This document shows, piece by piece, positions 5,786 through 54,688 of a stretch of DNA of 64,000 nt (the stretch's first letter is position 1; every line of letters starts with the position of its first letter). Both the position numbers and the translations under genes were made by a program. The stretch lies in contig JAYZAY010000043.1 of the NCBI GenBank assembly GCA_036339465.1, forward strand, positions 2,833 through 66,832, in the 5' to 3' direction. The notes beneath the pieces are model-generated. The model made no database searches. It was not told the DNA's origin and saw only the letters and a program-made list of their open reading frames with translations. This DNA is from Myxococcota bacterium (GTDB lineage: Bacteria > Myxococcota > XYA12-FULL-58-9 > JABJBS01).

Positions 5786-7156
5786 ATGAGCGCCAGCATC
5801 GAAGTGAACACCACTGTACCCAAACTCAAGCAGGTGCCCGGACCCACAAAGAAATTCCTAGTCGGAAACACCCTCGATTTTCAAAAAGCGCCTTTGGGGT
5901 TTTGCCTCGACATTGCTGAAAGATATGGAGAGATAGTCCAATTCAGAGTCGGACTCGACAATTGGTACCTCATTAACAACGCAGACTTCGTGCACGAATT
6001 TACGGTCCGACGCGCGAACCTCTTCCACAAACCACGCCTTGCAAAACGACTCTGGAAACCGTTTTTGGGCGATGGGATACTCTCACTGGATGGCCAAGAA
6101 TGGCGCCATGAACAAAAGTTCGTGAAGCCCGGCTTCCACAAAAAGAGAATCGATGCCTATGGCGAAGTAATGGTCACACATACCTTGGAGATGATTGAAA
6201 AGTGGACAGACGGCCTAATCGACAACATCTGTGTGGACATGACAGCATTGACCCTAAGAATCGTAGGCAAGACACTCTTTGATGCGGATGTTCAGAACGA
6301 CGCATCCACCATCGGTGATGCAATGCACACACTACAAGAATGTATGGTCGAACACATAAACAATCCAATTCCAGTACCCAAGTGGTGGCCCAGTCAAACC
6401 AATCGCCGAAAAATCCAAGCCATCGAAGACATTGAAGACATCGTTCGAAGAATTATCAACGAGCGCAGAAAGGAAGGAAGAGACCACGGGGATCTCCTCT
6501 CAATGATGGTTTTTACAGAAGACGAAACTGGCGCTCAAATGAGCGATAAGCAGCTTCGCGACGAAACCATGACCCTTGTTTTCGCAGGACATGAAACAAC
6601 CGCCACAGCGTTGGCTTGGATGACTTATATCATGGCCAAGGAACCCGAAGTCGTCAGAAAGATACGTCATGAACTCGACGAAGTGGTAGGAAAGCGTGCC
6701 ATCACGCTCTCAGATCTTCCAGCTCTACCTTATCTCGAAATGGTCATTAAGGAATCCATGCGGTTTCTTCCATCCGTTTGGGCCTTCATGCGAGAGCCAA
6801 TCGAAGATGTCCAATTAGGTGAGTATCTAATCCCCAAGGGTGATCAAATATTGATCAGTCCATACGTTATTCAGCACAATCCTCGATATTTCCCAGAACC
6901 CGAGAAATTCATACCTGAGCGTTTTTCGAAAGAGAACGAAAGAAAACTTCCAAAGGGTGCTTACGTCCCATTCGCTGCGGGCGCACGGGTTTGCCTAGGC
7001 AAGGCCTTCGCTCTGATGGAAGCGCGAATGATTTTGGGCACGATGGTCCAGAGAGTCGATTTTAAGATTGACGAAGATTTCGAAATTGATTTCCTCGCTC
7101 AGTTATCCCTTCAGCCCCGAGGTGGATTGCCAATTACCGTCAAAAAACGCACCTAG
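5786..7156 (+). CDS. Cytochrome P450 monooxygenase
   Basis: Heme-binding loop FAAGARVCLG, I-helix AGHETTA, EXXR region. SD aagggggag lies 6 nt before ATG 5786. The ORF track opens at 5741 but the RBS favours 5786. Confidence 0.9.
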   Translation: MSASIEVNTTVPKLKQVPGPTKKFLVGNTLDFQKAPLGFCLDIAERYGEIVQFRVGLDNWYLINNADFVHEFTVRRANLFHKPRLAKRLWKPFLGDGILSLDGQEWRHEQKFVKPGFHKKRIDAYGEVMVTHTLEMIEKWTDGLIDNICVDMTALTLRIVGKTLFDADVQNDASTIGDAMHTLQECMVEHINNPIPVPKWWPSQTNRRKIQAIEDIEDIVRRIINERRKEGRDHGDLLSMMVFTEDETGAQMSDKQLRDETMTLVFAGHETTATALAWMTYIMAKEPEVVRKIRHELDEVVGKRAITLSDLPALPYLEMVIKESMRFLPSVWAFMREPIEDVQLGEYLIPKGDQILISPYVIQHNPRYFPEPEKFIPERFSKENERKLPKGAYVPFAAGARVCLGKAFALMEARMILGTMVQRVDFKIDEDFEIDFLAQLSLQPRGGLPITVKKRT

Positions 7157-7633
7157 ATCCCCCCATTTTTCAATTGCTCCATAGGCCCTACCATTTAGCG
7201 TTCGACAATCGGGTCCTCTCTATACTTGTGGTACTCCACACCGGTGCCTCCGCCAACCTTTGTCTTAGTTCCATTGCCCATTGTAAAACCAATCTCTCCA
7301 TCAAATCGGAGCCAAAAATCCTCGTTGAGAATTAGACTCTTCCCAGAAAAGGATACCCGAAACGCATGTAAACCCTTCTTTAGATATCTGAGACCAACCT
7401 CTATTGGCCCCTCACCTCACAAAGAACCTTGATACTCAAACAACACACTTTTGCGACAATTTGAGATAGCCCCAAAGCCCATGGGTACTCGAACGGTTGG
7501 CCTTGACAAGTCAGAGCCTTCAATGTGATCCAGGTGTGACCAAGAAACCCGCCGGTTGATGGCTGACAAAGGTTGGCTGCGCGTAGGGAAGCATAGAAGC
7601 TCAAAATAACCTCAAGGTAAGATACCCTTCAGT

Positions 7634-8791
7634 ATGTTAAGAGTCATATCCCAAACACAAACGCTCGGATTAGAAAATCCACCATCGTCCATAGCCGCTT
7701 GGGGGCGATGGGGTGCCCTGATCTTAGCCATTTCGGGGGCAATTCACCTGCTCTGGTTCAGTGGCGCGGAAATCGGTCATTTTTTTCCTCGCTTCGAGCC
7801 CCACGGCAGCAGTTGGTCCCAACGTGTGCACATGTGGACCCGCTGGGACGGTGGCCACTATCTGCGTATTGCTCGGGAAGGTTACAACAATGGGGAACCC
7901 AACAACCAATCCGTGGCGTTCTTTCCACTCTATCCCATGCTCATGGCAGGGGTCAGTGACCTCTTAGACGTAGAAGACTACCAGTCTGGACTTCTGATCT
8001 CCCACTTTTTTCATCTTGTCACCCTTTGGCTCGTATTTTGGTTGGCACGTATCCGCTTTCATTGGGAACTTAAACCCATACTCCTCAGCCTCGGAGCCTT
8101 CGCCCTCTATCCAGCCCACAATTTTGGTTTTTCGATCTACACCGAATCACTTTTCTTGAGTCTTAGCCTGGGGGCATTTATCGCCTACGAATATAAATAT
8201 TTCCTCTTGGCCGGAATCCTGGCAGCTCTAGCCTCTGGTACCCGTTCCCAAGGGGTGCTCGTCGGCGCGGCCCTTTGGTTGGATTTCGCCTGGCAGCACC
8301 GCTCAACCCTACCAACCGACTTAAAAAGCATCACCAAACTTCTTCGCCTATCTATTTTTCCCTTAGGACTCTTTCTCTATTCGACATACCTACACTTCGA
8401 ATTTGGGGATTTCCTTATTTTCTCGAAAACTCAAGCCCTATGGGGACGTCATCTGACAACACCCATCCATACAATTTTACAAGACGGCGCCAACGTGGAT
8501 GTCTATTTAATTTTGGTCGGGTCGGTCTACCTAACCTACACAATGTGGCAAACGCCCCATCACCACCCCCTTAGAGACCGGCTCTACACCACACTATCGT
8601 TGGCATTACCGCTCTGTTCTGGGTCCATGCAGTCATTTTCACGACTGGTTTGGGTCTTGTTCCCACTCTATATTGTTGGCGTTATGAAATTCCAGACCCA
8701 CAGTAAAATCAAAAAGTCCTACGTTGTATTGGGCCTCTTTTTTTCCCTCATCTACGCATTTAAGGTCGGCCAGAAAGCCGGCGTGACATAG
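7634..8791 (+). CDS. GT-C-fold integral membrane glycosyltransferase-like protein (mannosyltransferase/DUF2029-like)
   Basis: 385 aa with about 9-10 hydrophobic helices and an RWDGGHYLRIAREGY motif after TM1, characteristic of PMT/PIG-V/GT87-type membrane glycosyltransferases. Confidence 0.55.
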   Translation: MLRVISQTQTLGLENPPSSIAAWGRWGALILAISGAIHLLWFSGAEIGHFFPRFEPHGSSWSQRVHMWTRWDGGHYLRIAREGYNNGEPNNQSVAFFPLYPMLMAGVSDLLDVEDYQSGLLISHFFHLVTLWLVFWLARIRFHWELKPILLSLGAFALYPAHNFGFSIYTESLFLSLSLGAFIAYEYKYFLLAGILAALASGTRSQGVLVGAALWLDFAWQHRSTLPTDLKSITKLLRLSIFPLGLFLYSTYLHFEFGDFLIFSKTQALWGRHLTTPIHTILQDGANVDVYLILVGSVYLTYTMWQTPHHHPLRDRLYTTLSLALPLCSGSMQSFSRLVWVLFPLYIVGVMKFQTHSKIKKSYVVLGLFFSLIYAFKVGQKAGVT

Positions 8792-39360: not shown

Positions 39361-40092
39361 CTACTTTTTCTTGATACCCAAGGTTTTCTTAAGACGGTCA
39401 TGCATATTCACTGATTGCCCTTCCACTGCGCTGATCAGCGTATTGGCTTCACCTACCAAGTCCCCAAAATCCCCTAAAGCCAAGTCCTCAGATACGTCCG
39501 CTTGTCTCATGGTCGGATTGGCTGAGTGCAAATCCCCTTTGGGCTTATCCCGCATCTTGGCCAGGGCTTCTTTTCGCGTTTGGACCATTCTTTCCATTTC
39601 TTCAAATCTTGATTTTAGAGCCTCCAAAGAATTCTTCGGGTTTTGTGCCCAATCACCTTGCCTTTGTAAAAGCCCTTCTAGGGACGTTGACGCATCACCC
39701 TCCAACCCCATCATCTCGCCCGCACTCCTCAACTCCGTAGCGCCAGCACAACCCTCACCCTCCAAAGCAGGGAGCACGATGTTTCGCAAATCCGCCGCAC
39801 CTTCGGAACCCCTCAATGCCTTCATGGAATTGGTGGATTGATTGGTTTGCCCGACATTGGAGACATCTTTATTGAAATAATCGTTCTTGAATGCAGGCCC
39901 CCTGGCTCCCTTTTGTAATTTAGCATCGAGCTGTTTTTGAATCCTCGGATCCACCCCTAAACTACGGCCCACCTCCCTGGCTTGTTTCGCCTGGTGCTTG
40001 GCAGCTTTATCCGATTTTTTAACAGCCTTTTCGTCTTCCTCTTCATCCGGTAAAATAACCGTCTGCGGCTTATAAAGTAGATCTCTTCCCAT
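39361..40092 (-). CDS. Hypothetical coiled-coil protein (243 aa)
   Basis: An ORF with good coding composition. No recognisable motif. Confidence 0.45.
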   Translation of the reverse strand: MGRDLLYKPQTVILPDEEEDEKAVKKSDKAAKHQAKQAREVGRSLGVDPRIQKQLDAKLQKGARGPAFKNDYFNKDVSNVGQTNQSTNSMKALRGSEGAADLRNIVLPALEGEGCAGATELRSAGEMMGLEGDASTSLEGLLQRQGDWAQNPKNSLEALKSRFEEMERMVQTRKEALAKMRDKPKGDLHSANPTMRQADVSEDLALGDFGDLVGEANTLISAVEGQSVNMHDRLKKTLGIKKK

Positions 40093-40252: not shown

Positions 40253-41410
40253 TTGGACTTCCCAAGTAAGAACAACATACTTATGGATGATAAGGGCGAG
40301 TCATCAATGGTCAAATTAAAGGGAATGCAGCAGATGTACCTAACACAAGACGATCGTAAACGAATGGCAGGCGACCTCCTAACCATTGGATTTGACGGGC
40401 AAACCCTCAGCCCAGAACTCAAAGAGGTGCTTCGAGAAACCCAAGCAGCCGGGATCATTCTCTTTAAGAGAAACATCGAATCCGTAGAGCAGGTCGTTGA
40501 ACTGAACCGAGAACTGAAGGCTTTCCGCCCTGAGCGGCCCCTAAGCCTGGCCATCGACCACGAAGGTGGGAGGGTGATGCGCATGGACCGGCCCGTCATT
40601 CAATGGCCACCCATGATGAACGTCGGCACCTATGACGACCTCACTCTTACCCAAGCCGTTGGAAAAGCCATGGGACACGAGCTCCGGAGCCTGGGCTTCG
40701 ATATCGATTTTGCACCCGTCTTAGACGTGCACACCAATCCTGGAAACCCAGTCATCGGTGACCGTGCTTTCTCAACTAAACCGCATCAGGTGGGTAAACA
40801 TGGTCTCGCATTCTGGCAAGGACTTAGCTCAGCCGGAGTCGGTGGTTGTGGAAAACACTTCCCAGGACATGGGGACACCGCCCAAGACAGCCACCTAGAA
40901 CTCCCCACCTTGACACACTGCCTGGAAAGACTCCGAGAGATCGAATGGCCTCCATTCCATCAGGCAATCCAGGGGGGACTCGATGCAATTATGACCGCAC
41001 ATGTCCTCTTTCCAGAATTAGATGAATCTCATCCCGCAACATTCTCTAAGGAAATCCTCGATATTCTCCGTGATGAGTTAAATTTCGAAGGACTCATTAT
41101 TAGTGATGATCTAGAAATGAAGGCTGCCGCAGAACGCTACACTTACGAGGAAATGCCCATTCTCGGACTCAACGCAGGGGTCGAACATTTCCTAATCTGT
41201 CAAAAGCCCGAACCCATCTTAGAAGTCTACCGTGGAATTATACTCGGTATCGAGCAGGAGAAGATCTCCCACCAAACTCTTTTTGAGGCCTCCAAAAGCT
41301 CACGTGAATGGCTCGACCGCTGGACGAAGCCAAAAGTAGACCCCACAAAGTGGAGAGACATAGTTGGACATGAGATGTTTGCGGCACTTTGTACCAAATT
41401 ACAAAATTAG
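40253..41410 (+). CDS. nagZ: Beta-N-acetylhexosaminidase NagZ (GH3)
   Basis: LSLAIDHEGGRVMRM and KHFPGHGDT motifs. The true start is probably internal, around 40325-40334, by comparison with NagZ N-termini. Confidence 0.85.
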   Translation: MDFPSKNNILMDDKGESSMVKLKGMQQMYLTQDDRKRMAGDLLTIGFDGQTLSPELKEVLRETQAAGIILFKRNIESVEQVVELNRELKAFRPERPLSLAIDHEGGRVMRMDRPVIQWPPMMNVGTYDDLTLTQAVGKAMGHELRSLGFDIDFAPVLDVHTNPGNPVIGDRAFSTKPHQVGKHGLAFWQGLSSAGVGGCGKHFPGHGDTAQDSHLELPTLTHCLERLREIEWPPFHQAIQGGLDAIMTAHVLFPELDESHPATFSKEILDILRDELNFEGLIISDDLEMKAAAERYTYEEMPILGLNAGVEHFLICQKPEPILEVYRGIILGIEQEKISHQTLFEASKSSREWLDRWTKPKVDPTKWRDIVGHEMFAALCTKLQN

Positions 41411-43266: not shown

Positions 43267-43495
43267 ACCCCTTAATTAAGCTCAGCTAACTTCCGGTGTC
43301 AAACAACGTGTACAGCGAGCAAACCTACTTTACAGTTGAATACACCTACATCATTGTAATTTCGAACAAAACAGATGCCATATGTAGGTAAATACACGAC
43401 AATCACTACGGAGAGGTCAGAATGTGGGTTGACAATTCGGTGCAGGACCCGACTAATTGGTATCCCACCGAAGAACGTTCGAGAGGGTACCGACT

Positions 43496-45406
43496 ATGAA
43501 ACAACCGTCCGTGCAGAAAATATTCTTAATCCTAGGATTTTGTACACTCGTTGTCCAAGGCTGTGGAGAAAAGCGTCTTACAGCAATTAACATTCCAACC
43601 AATGGCGTCCAGGAGTGTCAGGAAGACTCGGATTGTCCCGACGGATTGATCTGCGTTAATAGCGAATGCGTTGAGGTCGAGCACTTCGACTGTAAGGGCG
43701 ACGACCTCCCCATTATTTCGGTCGACCCCAGTGAACTCGATTTCGGAGAAGTCATCATTGCAACCACCACCACCAAACCAGTAACCATCACCAATGAGAG
43801 TTCCTGTAACCTTCGTCTGAGCTCCATCGGTCTAGGCAATGATACCACCGCCGGTTTCAAATGCGACCCTTGTGACATGACTCAGGAAGACATCCTTATC
43901 GCTCCACGCCGTAGTTCAGGCATCAACGTAACATACTCCCCCTTGGTTATCGGTGCCGCTTCAGGGACGTTACTCATTAAATCGGATGCCAAAAACGTTC
44001 AAAGTACAAACGGCTTCTTCGAGGTTATGTTAACTGCGCAATACAGCGGAGAACCCAAGCTCTTAGTCGAACCATCCAACCTTAATTTTGGCTATGTCCC
44101 ATTTCAAATCGGTGATACACCAAGCTCAATCACCCAAGAAGTAACCGTCAAAAACGTCGGCACCGGAAATGCGGCCCTGAAAATAGAATATATTACCCTA
44201 CCCCCTGAGCTAGGCTTTACCATTCCAGAATCCTTCGCAGACTTAGACCCATCATCGCCATTACTCCTCTCTCCTTTTAAGGAAAATGCTCCGGAAACGC
44301 TGCTGACTATTCCCGTAACCTTCACCCCTGATCTCAACAAAGAGTTTCGCGCGCGACTCCAAATTCACGCAGATTACGGCAATGGCGAAAAGGATAAGTA
44401 CCCAATTGAATTGACCGGTTCATCCCTTGGTGAGCCCGAAATTGAAGTCACTCCCAATCTCTTGGAATTCAAAGATAGAAATGATGCCCCCATGCGACTC
44501 TATCGTACCGAACAACAAACCGTCTACATTTCCAATAATGGCCAATCCATGCTCGAAATAGACCTTCTCTTGAACGATTTTGAAACCTCGGGTGACTTCG
44601 AAATATCTCCCCCCATTGTTCCGCCCATAATGCCGGGACAACGAGTCGCCGTAAGCGTATTTTATACCCCGACCCTGGTTTTCTCTCCCACTGCCGATGG
44701 TATCCTCACCATTCGCAGCAATGATACCGATGAGAATACCATCAATATAGCCCTCAAAGGTTATGCCACCACCACCGATTCTGACGACGTCCTAAAAGTG
44801 GAAATGGAGTTTACCAACAGCGGAAGTAATTGGGCCTCAGACGATTTCCGTAATGTCGATTTAAGCCTCGACAGTGAACTCGGATTCATCTGTAAAAAGC
44901 CGACATATGGTCAAGCCTCCGACAACACTCTAGCTATAACCGAAAACCCCTGCCAAGACTGGACGAACTCCGGTTCACTGGGCACGGCCACTTGGCTCTC
45001 ACTTGGAGTAAACGAAGAACCGGAAAGAGTCATTCTCTACGGCCTAGGCCAAGACCTCGCCGACCGAAAGGTGTTCAAAGTTTATACCCACTATGTCGAA
45101 GACTGTAAGCGTGTGGCCACCGGTCAGGTAGCCAATCTCGCCGGTGTTGGCGTCAGTATCCTACTAGGCATTTTGGGTGGGCAGGTTGGTGTGCCAATCA
45201 CATTACCACCAGACCAAATTAGTAGCCTCATTGAAGGTAACTGCTTCGAGCATGCCTCTAGCCAAGTGAAAGTGACCGCCTACGTCAATGACGCCGTTCT
45301 CACCACCACACAAATTGGTCTTGGAAGTAAAGGTGACCGCAAGAAGGCCATCGAGTTCTGTCGTAAAAACGGACAATTCCTCCTAGGAAGTGACGAATGC
45401 AACTAG
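43496..45406 (+). CDS. Large secreted (probably lipo)protein with reiterated ASH / choice-of-anchor-D-like beta-sandwich domains
   Basis: Signal peptide MKQPSVQKIFLILGFCTLVVQGC. Repeats follow the pattern LDFGEVIIATTTTKPVTITNES.CNLRLSSIGL....F.C.P......I.P..S..I.V.YSP...G...G.L.I.SD. SD gagagg before ATG 43496. Confidence 0.7.
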   Translation: MKQPSVQKIFLILGFCTLVVQGCGEKRLTAINIPTNGVQECQEDSDCPDGLICVNSECVEVEHFDCKGDDLPIISVDPSELDFGEVIIATTTTKPVTITNESSCNLRLSSIGLGNDTTAGFKCDPCDMTQEDILIAPRRSSGINVTYSPLVIGAASGTLLIKSDAKNVQSTNGFFEVMLTAQYSGEPKLLVEPSNLNFGYVPFQIGDTPSSITQEVTVKNVGTGNAALKIEYITLPPELGFTIPESFADLDPSSPLLLSPFKENAPETLLTIPVTFTPDLNKEFRARLQIHADYGNGEKDKYPIELTGSSLGEPEIEVTPNLLEFKDRNDAPMRLYRTEQQTVYISNNGQSMLEIDLLLNDFETSGDFEISPPIVPPIMPGQRVAVSVFYTPTLVFSPTADGILTIRSNDTDENTINIALKGYATTTDSDDVLKVEMEFTNSGSNWASDDFRNVDLSLDSELGFICKKPTYGQASDNTLAITENPCQDWTNSGSLGTATWLSLGVNEEPERVILYGLGQDLADRKVFKVYTHYVEDCKRVATGQVANLAGVGVSILLGILGGQVGVPITLPPDQISSLIEGNCFEHASSQVKVTAYVNDAVLTTTQIGLGSKGDRKKAIEFCRKNGQFLLGSDECN

Positions 45407-47745
45407 GCCAAAGAATATTCATAGCAGGAATACTTCTGGCGTTTTCCTCGGGATGCGTAACGGATCTCGAAGAGATTGATTGTTCTAAAACCCCGGACCT
45501 CGGCATCTGTAAATCCGAGGACGACAAAGCCAAAGAAGGAGAACCCAAACTTTTCGTGGATCCGCCTTTCGGGGTCGGCTTTAGCTGTGTGCTTCTAGAA
45601 TGTGATGAACAAAAAGGATTGCTCGTTGAAAACAAAGGCGGGGGCTACCTAGCCCTGAGTGAAATCTTCGTCGTATCCGAACAAGAAACCGACTTTTCAT
45701 TGCAATTTTACCAGCTCGACGAAAACGAAGAGCGCACCGAAATTGCCAAACCTGCCAAGGCAGAGCCTCTAACACTCATCAACAACCAAAAACTCTTCAT
45801 CGTTGTCTCATATCAACCCTCAGATGCAATTGAAGATATCGCGAAACTTCGAATCCGGTGGTATGACGGCAACCAAGAATATGACAACTCCGTTATTGTG
45901 GATACCGATTTTGACCTCACCGCTCGTTTTCAGGCTGTAGCGAAAGCGGAAGTCCTCACCAATGCTCTAAATTTTCCCTATACCGAGCCCACCAGCACAC
46001 ACACAGCTTACGTGGAAATCAAAAACATCAGCACCAAAGATACCATCCTGGGCGTAAACCAAATTCAATTAAGCGAAAACTCGGCCGATACGCTCTCCAT
46101 CGACCTGGGCTGGAGAGGTTACGCCAATCCCGGCGAAACCATCAAAGTACCGGTCATATTCAGCCCTACAAGTGAACAAGTCGCCGAAGGCAACTTAAGT
46201 ATCACCCTCAATGACAGACAAGAGCCATACGATATCCCAATTAAGGCAACTTCGATTACTGGAGGTAGGCTCACTCTTTTAACCCCCTTCTTACCAGAGC
46301 TGGATTTCGGGAACCTTTTCTTCAATGCCTCAAAAACCCTTTCGCTGGAAGTCCAAAATCAAGGTTCCGAAAGCATTCAGGTAACGTCAACGGTAACCAA
46401 CGGTACAGACTACTTCCACGTAATCCCACAAGAAGATTTTGTATTGGGTACCCTTGAAAAAAAGGTCGTAGAGGTGACGGTCATTGGAGCCCTAGGCGGT
46501 ACCTTGAGCGGAAATATAACTTTAAGTGCATCTGAACTTTCTGAGAATACAACAAACGCTAATGGCGACGAAACCACCAATGGGGCCACCTGTGGCGATT
46601 CGAATCCACCCATGGAAAATGATGCGGCAGGAGACCCCGAATCTGAAAATCCCGATGACCTTAGGGGCTGTGGCGAATCGCCTCTGGAACCGGATCAAGA
46701 GCCTGAAACGCCAACCGACCAAAACAGCACAGCTGGTAGTCAAGAAACGCCAACGGAGCAAGCCTCCACTGGCTTGGACGAAGACACCGCCTCCGCAGAC
46801 GAAACTCTAAATCCGACAGATATAGAAATTACATTGACCGCATCATGCGAAGCTCCCGTGGTCACCACCAACCAGGACCATATGTACTTCACACCCCAGG
46901 TCCTCGGATGGTTAGCGGAGGCACAATCCTTTAAGTTATTTAATACGGGCACCGGCCATCTTGTGATCTCAAAGATCGAGTTTGAGCTCGGGTCGTCACA
47001 CCAGATTGAGTTGGTAAACTCAAGACAACTACCAATATCAATAACCCCCGGGGACGAGCCTATGGAATTGGCGGTTCGGCTACGTGCCGGGCTTCTCGGT
47101 TCAGCCAACGCAACCCTATTGGTCACGACCAATGCTATCGACCACCCCCTCGTGCGATTACAAGTGGAGGCGTCTGTCGTTACTTGTCAAGAAGGTTGTC
47201 CAGTGGTCCATGGCACCCCCAATTGTTTTTCCGGCTCATGCCAAATAGAAAATTGCGATGACGGCTATCACGACCTCGATGCCGCCTCCACCACCGGCTG
47301 TGAATGTGCAGAAGAGAGAAACGGCCATGACATCGGAAGTTTGTGCGGAACACACCTTGAAATTCAACCCCTCTACGACCAAAGCGATAAGAAGAACAGT
47401 CACAAAGCCGTCGGGACCTTACACCATCAAGATGATGTAGACCTTTTCTTTGTTGAAACACGTGACGAATTCAACTGGTGGTCCGATGACTATGACGCCA
47501 GGGTAAGCTTGCTAGAGGCCCCAGCCGGCATGGTTCTCTGTGCAAAAATATATGCTCAGTCAGGCCTCGGCTGTACCGATAACGATGTTTTTTACGACAA
47601 TCATTGTAAGGGTGTAGGTGGGACTATTCGGGCTGAAGGTAGCTCTTTTTCAACCGACAATCATTATATTAAAGCCTGGATCATGTGGAGCCCAGGTAGC
47701 GCGCCTGTGTGTTCAAATTACGAGGTGAAATTCCAAGCAAAATAG
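45397..47745 (+). CDS. Second ASH/choice-of-anchor-D-like lipoprotein with an acidic disordered linker and a Cys-rich C-terminal domain
   Basis: Its start overlaps the stop of the previous gene (ATGCAACTAG). Lipobox AFSSGC. ASH-like repeats (LDFGNLFFNASKTLSLEVQNQGSESIQV). Linker rich in D, E, T and P. C-terminal CQEGCPVVHGTPNCFSGSCQIENCDDGYHDLD...GCEC. Confidence 0.7.
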   Translation: MQLGQRIFIAGILLAFSSGCVTDLEEIDCSKTPDLGICKSEDDKAKEGEPKLFVDPPFGVGFSCVLLECDEQKGLLVENKGGGYLALSEIFVVSEQETDFSLQFYQLDENEERTEIAKPAKAEPLTLINNQKLFIVVSYQPSDAIEDIAKLRIRWYDGNQEYDNSVIVDTDFDLTARFQAVAKAEVLTNALNFPYTEPTSTHTAYVEIKNISTKDTILGVNQIQLSENSADTLSIDLGWRGYANPGETIKVPVIFSPTSEQVAEGNLSITLNDRQEPYDIPIKATSITGGRLTLLTPFLPELDFGNLFFNASKTLSLEVQNQGSESIQVTSTVTNGTDYFHVIPQEDFVLGTLEKKVVEVTVIGALGGTLSGNITLSASELSENTTNANGDETTNGATCGDSNPPMENDAAGDPESENPDDLRGCGESPLEPDQEPETPTDQNSTAGSQETPTEQASTGLDEDTASADETLNPTDIEITLTASCEAPVVTTNQDHMYFTPQVLGWLAEAQSFKLFNTGTGHLVISKIEFELGSSHQIELVNSRQLPISITPGDEPMELAVRLRAGLLGSANATLLVTTNAIDHPLVRLQVEASVVTCQEGCPVVHGTPNCFSGSCQIENCDDGYHDLDAASTTGCECAEERNGHDIGSLCGTHLEIQPLYDQSDKKNSHKAVGTLHHQDDVDLFFVETRDEFNWWSDDYDARVSLLEAPAGMVLCAKIYAQSGLGCTDNDVFYDNHCKGVGGTIRAEGSSFSTDNHYIKAWIMWSPGSAPVCSNYEVKFQAK

Positions 47746-47830
47746 TTCCACAAAGCCCTAGCCAGAGAAAACCTTTGGGGATCTCTGGCGGCCATTCTAT
47801 AATTCTCTTAACCTTAGGGAGAGTGATAGC

Positions 47831-48685
47831 GTGTCTACCGAAAATACCGACCCAAATGATTCTTTCCTTAGAGAGATCAGGAATTTCCGGCTCCAATATC
47901 AAGACCTCCTTGAACAATTCTTTAATGTCTTGCCCAACCGCTCAACTCCACGAATCATCTCACCCAATGAAAGCCTGAGCGTCCTCTCGCAGACAACCTA
48001 TCTTTGGCTGCGCTCCGGCAAGATCAAACAACTTAGTAACAAAACAGAACTAAGATATTTTGGTCCCGGAGATTTACTGAAGTGCTGCCCGGCGAGCTCT
48101 GGCTCTGTTTTTGAATTGCAGGATGACGTCCCGTGTCACGCAGAAGAATACTCAGAGTCCGATCTGATGGAGCAGGTGATGGCACATGAAAGCCTCACTA
48201 GATTATGGATCGATATCCAAGATGCCGAGACTCGTTTGCTTGAAATGCTATGCGGCTACCTGGTCACTCCACATTCCCACATAGATTCAAGCTTCAAATA
48301 CTTCAACGAGGGCGATGTCATCATTCGGGAAGGTGACAAACCCGATGGTATTTATGAAATGGTCAGTGGCAAAGCCACCGTATGTATCGGAGGAACCGCG
48401 GTTGGCGAAATTAGTGCAAATGAAATATTCGGTGAAATCAGTTACCTCACAGATTCGCCTCGCTCCGCCACAATCACCGCGCTCTCAACATCCCTGGTCC
48501 AAATATCCAGTGCCGACTCTTTCGATGCCCTTGTGGAACACCGATCGGATTTATTGGCCAATATTTCGAGTAAATTGGCCTACAGACTGGTTGCAACGAA
48601 CCAGAAAGTAGAAGAGGTCAAGGTTCAGGTCCCTGCAACCAAAAAAGTGATGAAAATAAGGGTCAAAAGACTAAGCAGGATCTAA
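47831..48685 (+). CDS. Cyclic-nucleotide-binding (CAP effector) domain protein with a degenerate N-terminal second cNMP-like domain
   Basis: FNEGDVIIREGDKPDGIYEMVSGKATV...GEISANEIFGEISYLTDSPRSATITALSTSLVQI, a canonical cNMP-binding beta-roll. Confidence 0.75.
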   Translation: MSTENTDPNDSFLREIRNFRLQYQDLLEQFFNVLPNRSTPRIISPNESLSVLSQTTYLWLRSGKIKQLSNKTELRYFGPGDLLKCCPASSGSVFELQDDVPCHAEEYSESDLMEQVMAHESLTRLWIDIQDAETRLLEMLCGYLVTPHSHIDSSFKYFNEGDVIIREGDKPDGIYEMVSGKATVCIGGTAVGEISANEIFGEISYLTDSPRSATITALSTSLVQISSADSFDALVEHRSDLLANISSKLAYRLVATNQKVEEVKVQVPATKKVMKIRVKRLSRI

Positions 48686-48706
48686 AAAGACACATAAAAT
48701 CCCAAA

Positions 48707-49138
48707 TCAAGAAAATTTTTCGTGCTTCAATCCCAGGAGCATATAGATGGTTTTGACCAATTCGCTCCCCCGACGCTCCTCTAAGTCTAAGGATACAGTA
48801 CCGGAAGGCTTCGACATAACAGCATCGGCGCCTAGAGTCTTGGCTTCTACAGCAGAAGAAGATCCAAGCGCGGTCACCGCTGAAAGCACAAGAATCTTTC
48901 CTGGAAACTGCCCCCTCGCATGGCGTAAAAAAGTAAGCCCGTCCATAATGGGCATTTCAATATCCAATATGACGATGTCAGGCTTCAACTCATTGACTTG
49001 CTTTAGACCTTCAGCACCATTTCTAGCTTTACCGACAACCTCCAAGTTAGGATCACCCTCGAGTATATTCTGAACGACCATTCGCATCAACGGCGCGTCA
49101 TCCACAATCAAAACTCGTTTCTTCTCCATGAACTCCAT
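48707..49138 (-). CDS. Single-domain CheY-like response regulator
   Basis: KKRVLIVDDAPLMR...DIVILDIEMPIMDG...LSAVTALG...KP. Start MEFMEKKR (alternatives 49129 and 49162). Confidence 0.8.
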   Translation of the reverse strand: MEFMEKKRVLIVDDAPLMRMVVQNILEGDPNLEVVGKARNGAEGLKQVNELKPDIVILDIEMPIMDGLTFLRHARGQFPGKILVLSAVTALGSSSAVEAKTLGADAVMSKPSGTVSLDLEERRGSELVKTIYMLLGLKHEKFS

Positions 49139-49258
49139 CCCATTAAGAAATGCGGGCTCCAATTAGAGCGACTCTGCTCCCCGGATGTTCTCACCTTATG
49201 GAGTTCAACGCAAATAAGGCAAAGCACACCTACCTACAATAACGAATCGACATCTCAC

Positions 49259-50192: not shown

Positions 50193-51620
50193 CTACGTTT
50201 TAGAAAGCAACTCTCGTAAACCTCCAAAACTCCCATTAGAAAACATAACAACAACATCCTCCCTCTCGGCGTGTCGTTGTAGATGCTTCACAATCAAGGC
50301 TGGTTCATCAATGCTCCAGGCATCCAATCCCGCTAAACACAAAGCCTCCGCCATCCCAACAGGACTGAACCTCTCCGCCTCGGGGATCTCCATAAGACGC
50401 TCATGGCTCGCAATCACGACACAATCGGCCCCCAAAAGAGCGTTCTGTAGTTCCCTTTCGAGTACATTGCGTCTCGCGGTCGCTGACCTCGGTTCATACA
50501 ACGCCCACAATCGTCGATTAGGCCACCGTTGTCTCGCCGCTTGCAAGGTCTCCTTGATGGCGGTGGGATGGTGTCCAAAATCGTCTACAACGATGACACC
50601 TGCCCCCCACGTAGCACAAACTTCCAGACGCCGACGCACCCCTGGGTAAGTCGCCAACCCCTCTCGTATCTCCACCTCTGAGAGACCTATTACTAAATGC
50701 ACCGCCACAGCGGCCAACACATTTTGCACCGCAAAGCGCCCCCATAGGGGAATGAAGAGATTTAAGAGCTCACGCCCCCTAAAATTGACATCAAAAAAAC
50801 AGCCCTCTTCGCTATAACGAATGCCCTTTCCATAACACTCAAAATCATCGGCATCGCTACCTTCTCCATATCGAACCACCGAAAACCCATAATGCGCCCC
50901 TTTAAGAAGACTTAAGGCTCTCTTTGCCCCCCCCCAAACCACCAAGCAACCGTTCTCAGGGATAACATCCCAAAGCTTCTTAAACGCATTCTCAACGGCG
51001 CCAACGTCGGAAAAAATATCGGCGTGGTCAAACTCCAAGCTGGTTAAAATCGCAATATCGGGGCGGTAGTGACGAAACTTGGGGCCTTTATCAAAAAACG
51101 ACGTATCGTATTCGTCCCCCTCCACAACAAATTGATTCCCCGAACCGAACTTAAAGGAATTCGGGTAGCCAACCAAAGCCCCTCCAACCAAATACGAAGG
51201 GTCCAAATTCGCCGCCTCCAATACATGGGATAAAATGGCTGTGGTCGTGGTTTTGCCATGGGTACCGGTGACCACAATACTTTGTCGTTCCCCAATACCA
51301 AATTGTGCAATGGCCTCAGGCATAGAGATATACGCAAGCCCCGCTTGGAGAACATGCTGTGCTTCGAGATTGGTTTTGCGAATAATGTTTCCAATGACCA
51401 CCAAATCCGGTGACGGATCTAAGTTTTTGACATCGTAACCGTTACAAACGCGAATACCCCACTCAGCAAGTTTTTCACTCATGGGGGGATACACATTTTC
51501 GTCGCTGCCCCAAACTTCAGCACCCCTGGATTTAAGTAGGCCGGCCAAGGATCCCATTCCGGTACCACATAGGCCCATACAATAGATTTTCTTACCTCTC
51601 ACGTCCGCACTTATTGTCAT
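50193..51620 (-). CDS. mpl: UDP-N-acetylmuramate:L-alanyl-gamma-D-glutamyl-meso-DAP ligase (murein peptide ligase)
   Basis: KIYCMGLCGTGMGSLAGLL..GAEVWGSDENVYPPMS, GTHGKTTTT, EGDEYDTSFFDK and LEFDHADIF closely match Mpl rather than MurC. Confidence 0.85.
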   Translation of the reverse strand: MTISADVRGKKIYCMGLCGTGMGSLAGLLKSRGAEVWGSDENVYPPMSEKLAEWGIRVCNGYDVKNLDPSPDLVVIGNIIRKTNLEAQHVLQAGLAYISMPEAIAQFGIGERQSIVVTGTHGKTTTTAILSHVLEAANLDPSYLVGGALVGYPNSFKFGSGNQFVVEGDEYDTSFFDKGPKFRHYRPDIAILTSLEFDHADIFSDVGAVENAFKKLWDVIPENGCLVVWGGAKRALSLLKGAHYGFSVVRYGEGSDADDFECYGKGIRYSEEGCFFDVNFRGRELLNLFIPLWGRFAVQNVLAAVAVHLVIGLSEVEIREGLATYPGVRRRLEVCATWGAGVIVVDDFGHHPTAIKETLQAARQRWPNRRLWALYEPRSATARRNVLERELQNALLGADCVVIASHERLMEIPEAERFSPVGMAEALCLAGLDAWSIDEPALIVKHLQRHAEREDVVVMFSNGSFGGLRELLSKT

Positions 51621-51656: not shown

Positions 51657-52790
51657 CTATAACGACACCACCGACGCGGCCGCCTTAGAAATGAGTTCAT
51701 GGGCGCGAACTCTAAACTTTCTCATCCGGTCCCTTTTTCCTTCGGGACTGGGATGAACTGCATTTGTAAGAAGTATCATGGTCAATTCCGTACTCGGGTC
51801 AAACCAAATTGAAGTTCCCGTAAACCCCAAATGCCCAACCGTGTTTCGAGAAACCACATTACCTACCGTCGAGTCCCGAGCATCGGGGGTATCCCAAGCT
51901 AAAGTCCTCGTTGTGTTTCGAGGACGATTAGACCGAGTCCAAAATCTGCGAACCGTTCCACTATGAAAAAAAGAGTCCTCACCATTCCAAGACTTACGTA
52001 AAACCTCAGACAATTTCCATACACCATCGATGGTCCCAAAAAGTCCAGCGTGTCCAGCTACGCCATCCAATAACCACGCCTTGGGATCGTGAACTTCACC
52101 CACCAAGCGCTTACCCCTTAACGGACAATCTTCGGTCGCAACAAAACGACGTTTCACCAAGTTGCGTTTCTGTTTGAAGTCGCTCTGACGAACAAAAAAC
52201 AAATCCTCATCCAGCTCCAATGGACGCAGAAATGTTTGGTAGAAATAGACGTCTAAGGGCTGGTTCACAATTTTTTCGAGTATCCACCCAAGCACCATAA
52301 ATCCCACATCGGAATAACAAACTCTTGTACCCGGTGTCGCTACCAATGGTAACTCTTTCACCATCAATTTTATAGCTTCAGACGGATTGGACTGCTCAGA
52401 ACAATGTTTCCAAAAATCCGCATCCGCCGGCCAACCAGTGGTATGATCCAGCAGCATATCAATGGTAACGGCCTTAAAGCGGTCATCGCTAAAGATCGGC
52501 AGGCTTCCATGAATGGTGGCACCCAAATCCAAGCGGCCTCGTCCCGCCAAATGCAAGGCCACCAAACCAGCACCGAGTGGTTTGCTCAAGGAAGCGAGGT
52601 CAAATAGGTCGTCATATTTTAGCTTTTTGAGGGGCGGAGGGTCCTCCAAGCAACCATAGACATGACGATGAAAGATCTTTCCCCGAATTGAGGCCAAACA
52701 AGCAGCACCAGAAAAGACCTTCTCGCGCAGAGCGGTTTGAATGCAGCGATCAACTTCCGGGAGTGATTTCTCTTCTAAATTCAAACTCAA
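51657..52790 (-). CDS. Beta-lactamase-related serine hydrolase (class C/AmpH-like, penicillin-binding fold)
   Basis: SxxK motif FDLASLSKP. Confidence 0.8.
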   Translation of the reverse strand: MSLNLEEKSLPEVDRCIQTALREKVFSGAACLASIRGKIFHRHVYGCLEDPPPLKKLKYDDLFDLASLSKPLGAGLVALHLAGRGRLDLGATIHGSLPIFSDDRFKAVTIDMLLDHTTGWPADADFWKHCSEQSNPSEAIKLMVKELPLVATPGTRVCYSDVGFMVLGWILEKIVNQPLDVYFYQTFLRPLELDEDLFFVRQSDFKQKRNLVKRRFVATEDCPLRGKRLVGEVHDPKAWLLDGVAGHAGLFGTIDGVWKLSEVLRKSWNGEDSFFHSGTVRRFWTRSNRPRNTTRTLAWDTPDARDSTVGNVVSRNTVGHLGFTGTSIWFDPSTELTMILLTNAVHPSPEGKRDRMRKFRVRAHELISKAAASVVSL

Positions 52791-53692
52791 AATGAATCGT
52801 CCTCGTTGTAGACCACCAACCGATGTGCCCTACCATCTAAGTGGCCCCAAACACCCTGTCGAATGGCCCGAGACTCCGAATGATGCCCAATTTGTAACCC
52901 CTTCAAGATCGGCTTACCCAGCGCGCTCAGTAGTTCAACCATAAGCTCTCCGCCAGGAAGCTCATCTCGACTCGGCTCGCAATCTTTGAAATCCCCAAGA
53001 GCAAACCCCTCAACGCCTTCGAAAGCCCCCGAATGCCGTAGTTGTTGAAAGTTGCGATCTAAGCGATAAGGACTTTCGCCCACATCTTCAAGAACCAAGA
53101 TAGCACCACCGAGATTCGGCATCCAAGGTGTTCCAACCAAGGAAGCCAACACTGTGAGATTCGCCGTCAACACAAAACCTGAGGCTTGCCCTGGGGCGCC
53201 CGCCCCCACAAAATGCCCAGGATAAACCGATTCATCAATTTCTCGACGTACCAAACCATAAAGTTCTTCCCGAGCCTCGGGACTCCAGTCAGGTAAAGTC
53301 GAAATATTAGCGCCATGAATTGCGGGAAATCGCGCCTGCATCCAGAGAGCGTGAAGCGCGGTCACATCCGAAAAGCCCACCAACATCTTTTCTTGGTCCG
53401 GTCGCCAACCAGCACCGAGCTTAGCCAAAAGTCGGACGGCTCCATACCCCCCCCGCGCGGCCCAAATCACATCACAGGGCCCCGACAAGGCGGCATCAAA
53501 TGCGCCCTTTCTCGCAGTATCGTCCCCTGCAAGGTACCCATCTTTGGCATGGATCTGCCCCAGGCAATCTACGGAAAAATGACCAGCCTTCAATAGGGCC
53601 AATCCTGCATCCAGTCGAATCTCATTCACCACCCCACTGGGGGCAACAACACCTATCCTGGGATATTTCGAAAAGTGTTCACTCATATTCAT
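52787..53692 (-). CDS. ldcA: LD-carboxypeptidase (muramoyltetrapeptide carboxypeptidase, peptidase S66)
   Basis: PRIGVVAPSG N-terminal motif and S66 overall pattern. Overlaps the upstream gene's stop by 4 bp. Confidence 0.85.
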   Translation of the reverse strand: MNMSEHFSKYPRIGVVAPSGVVNEIRLDAGLALLKAGHFSVDCLGQIHAKDGYLAGDDTARKGAFDAALSGPCDVIWAARGGYGAVRLLAKLGAGWRPDQEKMLVGFSDVTALHALWMQARFPAIHGANISTLPDWSPEAREELYGLVRREIDESVYPGHFVGAGAPGQASGFVLTANLTVLASLVGTPWMPNLGGAILVLEDVGESPYRLDRNFQQLRHSGAFEGVEGFALGDFKDCEPSRDELPGGELMVELLSALGKPILKGLQIGHHSESRAIRQGVWGHLDGRAHRLVVYNEDDSF

Positions 53693-53851
53693 CACCAAGA
53701 CCCTTTTCTTATACGATAGAATGCCCAAAACCAAATCTCGTCTAGCCTAAGGCGACTTGGGTACCTCTCAATAAGACAAAATAGGGTCCTGAGGGAATAG
53801 AGTCTTTAGACCATTGACCCATGGCCAAGAGATAGCTAGGTACCCGTTTCT

Positions 53852-54688
53852 ATGTGGTTAAATATCATCATTATACAGTTGCTAACCCACGTTCCGATCG
53901 GTGCGACAAAAGTAGATCCAACCGCCCTGAGTCAAAGCGAGCAACAAGTCTTCAACTCAGTGCGCCAAGATACTTTTTGCAGTTGTACGAGCGCCATGAC
54001 TTTGGCCGGGTGCTCCGCTTTAAGACCGGATTGTCAAATTGCAACCCACCTCGACCAGATTATTTTTCGAGCAATTCAAGCCGGCAACACCCAGGATGAA
54101 TTGCTAAGTTTTCTCCCCGAACACGTCCTTGGACCATTCTGCAAAGCCCCCCAAAACGTCAGGCCCAAAAAGGCACCTAATTCAAAAGGTACGCTCAACG
54201 GGCGAGTTAAGATTTATGAATTCGCTGATTTCAGATGTGGACACTGTAAAAAAGCAGTAGAAAAGGTAAAAACCGCCTTAAAATCATATCCAAAGCAAGT
54301 AGAGTTCTCCTTTATTCCCTTCCCCTTAAACGACCATCCCGAATCTCTTGCAGCCGCCGAAGCTGTGATGGCGGCCGGAGAACAAAACAAATTTTGGGAA
54401 ATGCATGACGCACTCTTCAAAAATCAAAAAGCGGGTTTTAGAAAAACAGAAATTGATAAACTCGCTCGGAAACTTCACTTAAACCTTAAGAGTTTCAATA
54501 CTGCTCTGGCATCGGGAAAATACAAACGCCGACTTGAAGAGTTCAAAAAACTCGGGACAGATTTGGGCGTTCGGGGTACCCCAGCATTTTTCGTGAATGG
54601 GCGTTCCTTCCGACCCGTTCCTGGTGTTCTCCCACTAACAAAGCGAATCGCAATGGAATTAGACCGCAACGAGGATCAATGCCAATGA
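53852..54688 (+). CDS. DsbA-like thioredoxin-fold protein (CGHC active site)
   Basis: FADFRCGHCKKA, and C-terminal GTPAFFVNG. The N-terminal boundary is uncertain. Confidence 0.7.
   Translation: MWLNIIIIQLLTHVPIGATKVDPTALSQSEQQVFNSVRQDTFCSCTSAMTLAGCSALRPDCQIATHLDQIIFRAIQAGNTQDELLSFLPEHVLGPFCKAPQNVRPKKAPNSKGTLNGRVKIYEFADFRCGHCKKAVEKVKTALKSYPKQVEFSFIPFPLNDHPESLAAAEAVMAAGEQNKFWEMHDALFKNQKAGFRKTEIDKLARKLHLNLKSFNTALASGKYKRRLEEFKKLGTDLGVRGTPAFFVNGRSFRPVPGVLPLTKRIAMELDRNEDQCQ

Follow-up and report, generated by a model that had tools for sequence, protein, structure and literature searches.

The closest described relatives of the genes considered here are the choice-of-anchor D proteins (NCBIfam NF012200), whose immunoglobulin (Ig)-like modules of about 100 aa carry an LDFG..........N.G motif and are also captured by the HYDIN_VesB Ig, Cep192_D4 and ASH models. 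Two such genes, here called A and B, lie side by side on the + strand of a 64,000-nt stretch of DNA from a Myxococcota bacterium (contig JAYZAY010000043.1 of assembly GCA_036339465.1; this whole stretch is called the window, and positions are counted from its first letter). Gene A (43496-45406) encodes 636 aa, counted from its ATG, and gene B (45397-47745) encodes 782 aa. Judged from sequence, A and B are by homology choice-of-anchor D/ASH Ig-repeat proteins, and what is new relative to that family is an N-terminal lipobox anchor, an obligate and ordered pairing, and a C-terminal domain (CTD) in each protein, A-CTD and B-CTD, that existing family models do not describe.

Other adjacent gene pairs for surface proteins provide points of comparison. 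The SusE/SusF pairs of Bacteroidota are encoded by neighbouring genes, are N-terminally lipidated and combine an Ig-like domain with beta-sandwich binding domains. The analogy with A and B is functional only, as the latter have no sequence homology to SusE/SusF and no consistently adjacent SusC/SusD-type transporter or glycoside hydrolase. TraA and TraB of Myxococcus xanthus are likewise cell-surface proteins encoded by adjacent genes, TraA with a PA14 domain, a MYXO-CTERM tag and Cys-rich repeats and TraB with an OmpA domain; Pfam and NCBIfam searches detect no PA14, MYXO-CTERM or OmpA domain in A or B. PADLOC returns no match for either protein, and literature searches on choice-of-anchor D proteins, on MXAN_6577 and on ASH domains in lipoproteins of Myxococcota brought up no relevant work.

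The A-B pair is strictly ordered and confined to metagenome-assembled genomes (MAGs) and metagenomes of uncultured Myxococcota type. Protein A has about 30 full-length orthologues with 36-48% identity, and a search covering a single genome for each GTDB species yields 19 A-bearing loci in MAGs labelled Myxococcota, Myxococcales, Deltaproteobacteria, Bdellovibrionales (one case) or simply 'bacterium'. When these loci are taken together with two long metagenomic contigs, a B orthologue with a lipobox and 30-38% identity directly follows A in all 21 related loci that have downstream sequence. A more distant pair, L024, raises the total to 22 of 22. It was found through the B-CTD of its B-like member (P0112). 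The gene immediately upstream, which overlaps that of P0112 by 4 nt, encodes a 585-aa protein, and the C-terminus of this protein aligns with the A-CTD profile at an hhalign probability of 99.85%. The B orthologues were recovered from the sequence that follows the A orthologues and from an exhaustive HMMER search; a word-indexed protein search with B, or with a 15-sequence B profile, returned a single true orthologue.

The two genes are also closely spaced. In the window the overlap is 10 nt, ATGCAACTAG, with a Shine-Dalgarno-like AGGAAG 6 nt ahead of the B ATG. Overlaps of 1-10 nt between the A stop and the B start occur in the window and in L005, L010, L011, L016, L017 and L024, and in the other loci the gap is at most 89 nt. 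The fixed order, together with the overlap or short gap, points to A and B being one two-protein unit. An earlier reading of the window from its letters alone (the sequence-only reading) had described two overlapping, coupled genes for exported, uncharacterised ASH/choice-of-anchor D proteins, and the pair is indeed real and conserved, with open reading frames (ORFs) and overlap as described. The same reading called the proteins giant, and in fact both are mid-sized. A and B are 100% identical to the MAG proteins P0005 and P0001, respectively, which NCBI places on a 69.6-kb contig of 'MAG: Myxococcota bacterium' and annotates, in both cases, as 'choice-of-anchor D domain-containing protein'.

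On balance, we lean towards A and B forming a heteromeric, adhesin-like binding complex in the envelope or at the cell surface. The two proteins of these uncultured Myxococcota would be co-expressed, probably in a 1:1 ratio, exported by the Sec pathway and lipidated at the N-terminus, and each would form a stalk of three or four Ig-like beta-sandwiches capped by a disulfide-stabilised C-terminal domain. The B jelly-roll with its invariant His/Asp cluster, together with the adjoining Cys knot, would be the likely ligand-binding head, and the Cys-bracketed, hydrophobic, Gly-rich helix of A would protrude and probably contact the membrane or B. The genes downstream of B, for a cyclic nucleotide (cNMP)-binding protein and a receiver protein, would be units separate from the pair.

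The alternative that fares best is that A and B are two independent, side-by-side paralogous adhesins that form no complex. Many choice-of-anchor D proteins occur singly, and the likeness of A and B to each other is confined to the Ig repeats (26% over 243 aa in BLASTP). We nevertheless consider this unlikely, given that the A-then-B order is invariant in every locus examined, L024 included, that stop/start overlaps are frequent and that each partner retains its own distinct CTD. Moreover, one Tara Oceans MAG (ERR594338_concoct_180) carries two complete A-B pairs, L006 and L009, and not unequal numbers of the two genes. The A proteins of L006 and L009 are 45% and 41% identical to the window A, which points to duplication of the whole cassette. 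No second paralogous A-B pair is found in the window.

Both proteins are probably lipoproteins and may reside in the outer membrane or at the cell surface. In a pattern-level test, the lipobox Cys is preceded by a hydrophobic stretch and is invariant in all 29 orthologues of A (Cys23) and all 15 of B (Cys20), and the lipoboxes of the orthologues are canonical (LAGC, AAGC, ASGC). The residue at position +2 after the lipobox Cys is Gly in A and Val in B. While typical choice-of-anchor D proteins bear a MYXO-CTERM, PEP-CTERM, LPXTG or T9SS tag at the C-terminus, the C-termini of A (...GSDECN) and B (...KFQAK) have no hydrophobic tail and match none of these tags in NCBIfam or Pfam.

The Ig-like repeats account for the family assignment. 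The domain search proposed in the sequence-only reading places both proteins above the curated NF012200 cut-off of 45 bits, with 85.3 bits in three stretches for A and 62.5 bits in two stretches for B. The Pfam scores for Cep192_D4 and HYDIN_VesB_CFA65-like_Ig (82.4 and 56.1 for A, 42.6 and 44.1 for B) are all above the cut-offs as well. For Pfam ASH (PF15780, gathering cut-off 27), A scores 40.4 bits and B only 23.5, so that the repeats recognised earlier as ASH/choice-of-anchor D stand as choice-of-anchor D in both proteins, with the ASH cut-off reached in A alone; Cep192_D4 and HYDIN_VesB Ig, which both proteins pass, are related models of the clan. Profile matches in the PDB are to the Ig domains of HYDIN, FAP74 and CEP192 for A and to HYDIN, at 1e-42, for B. 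The first Ig-like domain of B has a weak Cep192_D4 match, aligns with the second Ig-like domain of A in BLASTP and contains an invariant DPPFG motif. The D/E/T/P-rich linker noticed earlier in B is present and consists of 52% D/E/T/P over aa 385-480. Among orthologues it is found, in a shorter form, in the 74%-identical P0002 and is absent from the 33-34%-identical ones compared, so that it is a lineage-specific insertion.

In protein A, all five Cys of the N-terminal knot are invariant among orthologues, many of which carry the knot in duplicate; weak Dickkopf_N and DUF7107 matches are the strongest that the knot gives. A-CTD, about 210 aa in length, is the best-conserved part of the protein, with a mean column identity of 58% compared with 48% for the whole. 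It has no Pfam match even at E<=10 and no NCBIfam model. The AlphaFold2 model (mean predicted local distance difference test, pLDDT, 77.9) is a beta-sandwich broken by a low-confidence helix-loop-helix, and Foldseek searches of PDB and BFVD with it find nothing at E<=1e-3, the best match being DUF4425 (E 7e-3, template-modelling score, TM, 0.30). Its motifs (D.R.VDL..SP.G ... EEPER ... Y.EDC) recall what we take to be a DUF2135/YfaP-type sandwich, with no supporting model match.

The helix-loop-helix corresponds to a hydrophobic, Gly-rich insert, with the consensus LLGIGGSILLGALGGAIGV across orthologues, that is flanked by the invariant Cys537 and Cys583, presumably joined as a disulfide. Its Kyte-Doolittle mean of 1.90 over 19 aa is of transmembrane grade, and in 27 of the 29 orthologues no stretch beyond the signal peptide is more hydrophobic. 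The pLDDT of the insert is low (51-62), but the strands past the helix are modelled confidently within the same sandwich, which makes a protruding or buried hairpin more likely than a membrane span. Glycine-zipper lipoproteins such as SlyB (Gly-zipper_Omp, Gly-zipper_YMGG, Rick_17kDa_Anti) also combine a lipid anchor with a Gly-rich hydrophobic helix. In A, unlike in these proteins, the helix is inserted inside a beta-sandwich, between invariant Cys, and neither A nor A-CTD matches the glycine-zipper models PF13488, PF13441 and PF05433 at E<=10.

The insert is central to two further proposals, both improbable. In one, A is a periplasm-facing tether, held at both ends by its lipid and by the hydrophobic helix, that together with B braces or spaces the layers of the envelope. 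The conserved, transmembrane-grade segment and the rod-like strings of Ig domains in both proteins would suit such a role, and in the clade of the window the pair sits among genes of peptidoglycan recycling (NagZ, Mpl, LdcA and a beta-lactamase-fold protein). The model, however, with the strands past the helix in the same sandwich and the flanking invariant Cys, suggests that the segment has both its ends on one side and makes no simple span; the equivalent segment of the distant L024 homologue contains charged residues, and the peptidoglycan genes are not conserved neighbours beyond the closest relatives. In the other proposal, an equally long shot, the disulfide-bracketed hydrophobic loop of A-CTD would insert into a membrane, either the outer membrane of the cell itself or, on contact, that of another cell, with the B jelly-roll providing the targeting. 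If true, the pair would represent a device of uncultured Myxococcota that has not been described before, is carried by lipoproteins, acts on membranes upon contact and uses two unmodelled domain families.

Turning to the binding complex that we favour, the putative binding head is B-CTD, which comprises the Cys knot and the jelly-roll (about 190 aa) and is the most conserved part of B (mean column identity 52% compared with 44%). Its AlphaFold2 model, from an alignment built with sub-sequences of the exhaustive HMMER matches, shows a small Cys knot and a sandwich of about seven strands at a pLDDT of 84.4. B-CTD has no Pfam match at E<=10, PPC included, and no NCBIfam model. The model is a beta-sandwich similar in size to PPC/collagen-binding domains (e.g. 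ColG s3b), PliG and CUB. The top Foldseek matches are PliG, the ColG collagen-binding domain, CUB, botulinum HA70, the C-terminal domain of C. perfringens enterotoxin and the Tk-SP jelly-roll, all of them non-significant (E 3e-3 to 5e-2) and with query-normalised TM of 0.28-0.36. The match to the ColG collagen-binding domain is weak (E 1.3e-2 to 2e-2), with TM of 0.42-0.52 when normalised by the target and 0.28-0.30 when normalised by the query, and the G-x-L-H-x3-D-x-D-L-Y-F strand motif resembles what we take to be the PPC signature. The earlier suggestion that the C-terminal module of B may bind a ligand thus gains some ground, in that the module is conserved and looks, by weak fold resemblance, like a binding domain.

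The Cys-rich C-terminal module noted in B is present, and its Cys, including all eight of the knot, are invariant in orthologues. The knot recurs as 3-17 tandem copies in other proteins matching NF041328, the MXAN_6577-like cysteine-rich family, which is itself uncharacterised and for which no paper was found. The unit of about 50 aa (aa 597-650) aligns to the 4-17 tandem repeats of MXAN_6577-like proteins, whereas B has a single unit fused to the jelly-roll. B-CTD itself does not match NF041328 at E<=0.01 (model cut-off 100 bits); that model is matched only by proteins with multiple copies of the Cys unit, and among the ones examined P0132 (145.7 bits) alone exceeds the cut-off. A HMMER scan of 1.84 billion representative sequences with B-CTD gives 161 matches at E<=1e-3, of which about 70 are B-like proteins of 640-750 aa and the remainder are NF041328-positive proteins with the Cys unit in tandem repeats.

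The sequence-only reading also offered metal as a possible ligand of this module, and a metal or redox module binding copper or zinc through the Cys cluster would be in line with the twelve Cys in the last 186 residues of B, with their C-x3-C and CEC spacings, and with a weak Foldseek match (E 1.6e-2) to CorA, a surface protein that binds copper. We regard this as very unlikely. The CorA match is not significant, no match to MopE or another metal-binding family is found in Pfam or NCBIfam, and the even and invariant number of Cys in an exported protein, along with the fact that other proteins carry the Cys unit in tandem as a structural repeat, is better explained by disulfides than by metal sites.

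Several observations weigh against A and B being a surface-binding complex. The gene order and the overlap are all that points to complex formation, and the term binding domain for B-CTD reflects a weak resemblance of models, with no PDB fold match at E<=1e-3. The lipoboxes of the window proteins, VQGC in A and SSGC in B, are less canonical than those of their orthologues, and the lipoprotein call is made at the level of pattern. No characterised homologue of A or B was found. Finally, the window, L006 and L008, the three closest marine loci for which downstream DNA is available, each have some receiver-domain gene convergent to B, which makes a clade-specific regulatory link conceivable. The features of the locus are listed in Table 1.

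Table 1. Positions of the A-B gene pair, its predicted protein domains and the adjacent features in the window
Feature	Position	Strand	Description
Gene A	43496-45406	+	636-aa predicted lipoprotein: signal peptide, small Cys knot, three Ig-like repeats, A-CTD
A signal peptide	43496-43564	+	Predicted; lipobox Cys23 (LVVQG-C)
A N-terminal Cys-rich knot	43616-43693	+	C41, C47, C53, C58, C66
A Ig-like domains 1-3	43709-44755	+	Choice-of-anchor D/Cep192_D4/ASH; about aa 72-166, 187-310, 315-420
A-CTD	44762-45403	+	aa 423-636 (214 aa), family-specific beta-sandwich (modelled)
A-CTD hydrophobic Gly-rich helical insert	45104-45244	+	aa 537-583, core LAGVGVSILLGILGGQVGV
Gene B	45397-47745	+	782-aa predicted lipoprotein: signal peptide, four Ig-like repeats split by acidic linker, Cys-rich knot, jelly-roll
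B signal peptide	45397-45456	+	Predicted; lipobox Cys20 (FSSG-C)
B Ig-like domains 1-3	45538-46551	+	About aa 48-175, 185-285, 297-385
B acidic linker	46549-46836	+	D/E/T/P-rich, aa 385-480
B Ig-like domain 4	46849-47166	+	aa 485-590; best NF012200 stretch aa 485-580
B Cys-rich knot	47185-47346	+	aa 597-650, C-x3-C-x8-C-x4-C-x4-C-x14-CEC-x12-C
B C-terminal jelly-roll	47359-47742	+	aa 655-782, beta-sandwich (modelled), conserved GTLH..DD.DLYF
Imperfect inverted repeat	43337-43396		Arms 43337-43351 and 43382-43396, 12/15 complementary; probably outside the module
Candidate -35 element TTGACA(A)	43429-43434 (heptamer to 43435)	+	67 nt upstream of the A ATG
cNMP-binding neighbour	47831-48685	+	284 aa with a C-terminal cNMP-binding domain (PF00027, aa 156-236, 59.7 bits); outside the module
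Receiver neighbour	48707-49162	-	151 aa, stand-alone receiver, convergent with the pair; PF00072, 79.4 bits; not part of the module

Upstream of A, the heptamer TTGACAA is found in the window and in each of its four closest relatives (L005-L008). Three of these heptamers align in a single block, the L006 and window copies lie elsewhere, and the five intergenic regions are otherwise unalignable. TTGACAA is a plausible -35 element, and if it is one, the inverted repeat in the same region would lie upstream of the promoter core. This repeat had been proposed as an operator, a role that the analysis does not support: when the intergenic sequence is shuffled, 14 of 300 versions contain an equally good repeat, which is borderline, and none of the four closest relatives conserves it.

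The cNMP-binding protein scores 35.9 bits with the CRP equivalog model NF008732, far under the cut-off of 266. No helix-turn-helix or other DNA-binding domain is found among its Pfam and NCBIfam matches, and its PDB and PADLOC matches are limited to the cNMP domain. Its N-terminal part of about 150 aa (47831-48290) has no match in Pfam, NCBIfam, PADLOC or PDB, and the domain order is the reverse of that in PycTIR-type effectors. A Pycsar-type effector was considered and rejected, with the cNMP domain at the wrong end compared with PycTIR, no adjacent cyclase and matches that cover the cNMP domain only. Beyond the B stop, a 7-bp stem (CCAGAGA...TCTCTGG) precedes a promoter-like TTGGGG-17-TATAAT at 47775-47803 (stem and site together spanning 47763-47803) and a GGGAGAG Shine-Dalgarno sequence ahead of the GTG start of the cNMP gene, which suggests that this gene is its own transcription unit.

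The receiver protein has no output domain and fits a CheY-type single-domain response regulator (a receiver alone, of about 120-150 aa). Its best NCBIfam match is the N-terminal region of CheB, far under the cut-off, and it reaches no CheY equivalog cut-off. In phmmer searches of the 22 related loci, no cNMP-binding homologue is found near the pair in any of them, and an orthologue of the receiver (60% identity) is found in L008 only, 3 kb downstream. Its neighbour there, on the opposite strand, is a gene for a CheA-like histidine kinase of 1051 aa (L008 13101-16772), and the cNMP gene of the window fills the position between B and the receiver that is equivalent to that of the kinase. In L006 the protein encoded downstream of B is an unrelated double-receiver protein, and longer contigs show other neighbours of the pair, among them a glycosyltransferase, an FHA protein, PFK and TonB/ExbBD.

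The sequence-only reading had the cNMP-binding and CheY-like genes following the pair in series and linked them to it. Both domains are as described, but the receiver gene runs in the opposite direction, and without conserved linkage, the test by which that reading was to be judged, a functional link is not supported. A signal-controlled adhesion or prey-recognition module, in which the pair is wired to the cNMP protein and the CheY-like receiver and regulated through the inverted repeat, is suggested by the adjacency of these genes in the window and by the receiver-domain genes downstream of B in L006 and L008, but it is largely refuted by the lack of conserved linkage and made hardly credible also by the opposite strand of the receiver gene, by a cNMP gene that has its own Shine-Dalgarno sequence and promoter-like site and encodes no DNA-binding domain, and by an unconserved inverted repeat that is borderline against chance. 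The pair by itself may still serve in adhesion or prey recognition.

Further out, genes of peptidoglycan-recycling type flank the pair at 40253-41410, 50193-51620, 51657-52790 and 52787-53734; the types represented are a NagZ-like GH3 protein, an Mpl-like Mur ligase, a beta-lactamase-fold (AmpH/PBP-like) protein and an LdcA-like LD-carboxypeptidase. They are joined by a DsbA-like gene at 53852-54688. Among all of these, NagZ alone is seen near the pair elsewhere, in the closest relatives only, and the upstream acyltransferase, epimerase and NagZ genes are common to the four closest relatives only. A 243-aa Lys/Glu-rich ORF with no Pfam domain (39361-40092, minus strand) has a 40%-identical counterpart in L008, where its relative position is the same. 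Two neighbours are restricted to the high-GC clade and absent from the window, namely a gene upstream of the pair for a 324-aa Cys-rich lipoprotein, present in eight loci, and a convergent Glyco_trans_1_3 gene immediately past B, present in six. The 324-aa lipoprotein has repeated C..D.DC..G.C motifs, like the N-terminal knot of A. Examples of the two genes are at 6920-7894 and 14170-15336 in L003, with equivalents in L001, L011, L012, L015-L017 and L020. A universal conserved neighbour of the pair, sought as a clue to function, was not found.

Myxococcota have very large sets of unannotated surface proteins, which are thought to underlie their social behaviour and predation. The immediate significance of the A-B pair within this repertoire is modest, because its building blocks are common and its function is not yet assignable, and the tempting link of the pair to cyclic-nucleotide and phosphorelay signalling has been removed as unsupported. 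What the analysis does define is a strictly paired, widely conserved cassette of two predicted lipoproteins, and it marks out A-CTD (about 210 aa) and B-CTD (about 190 aa) as unmodelled domains on which family curation, structure determination and functional studies can now be focused.

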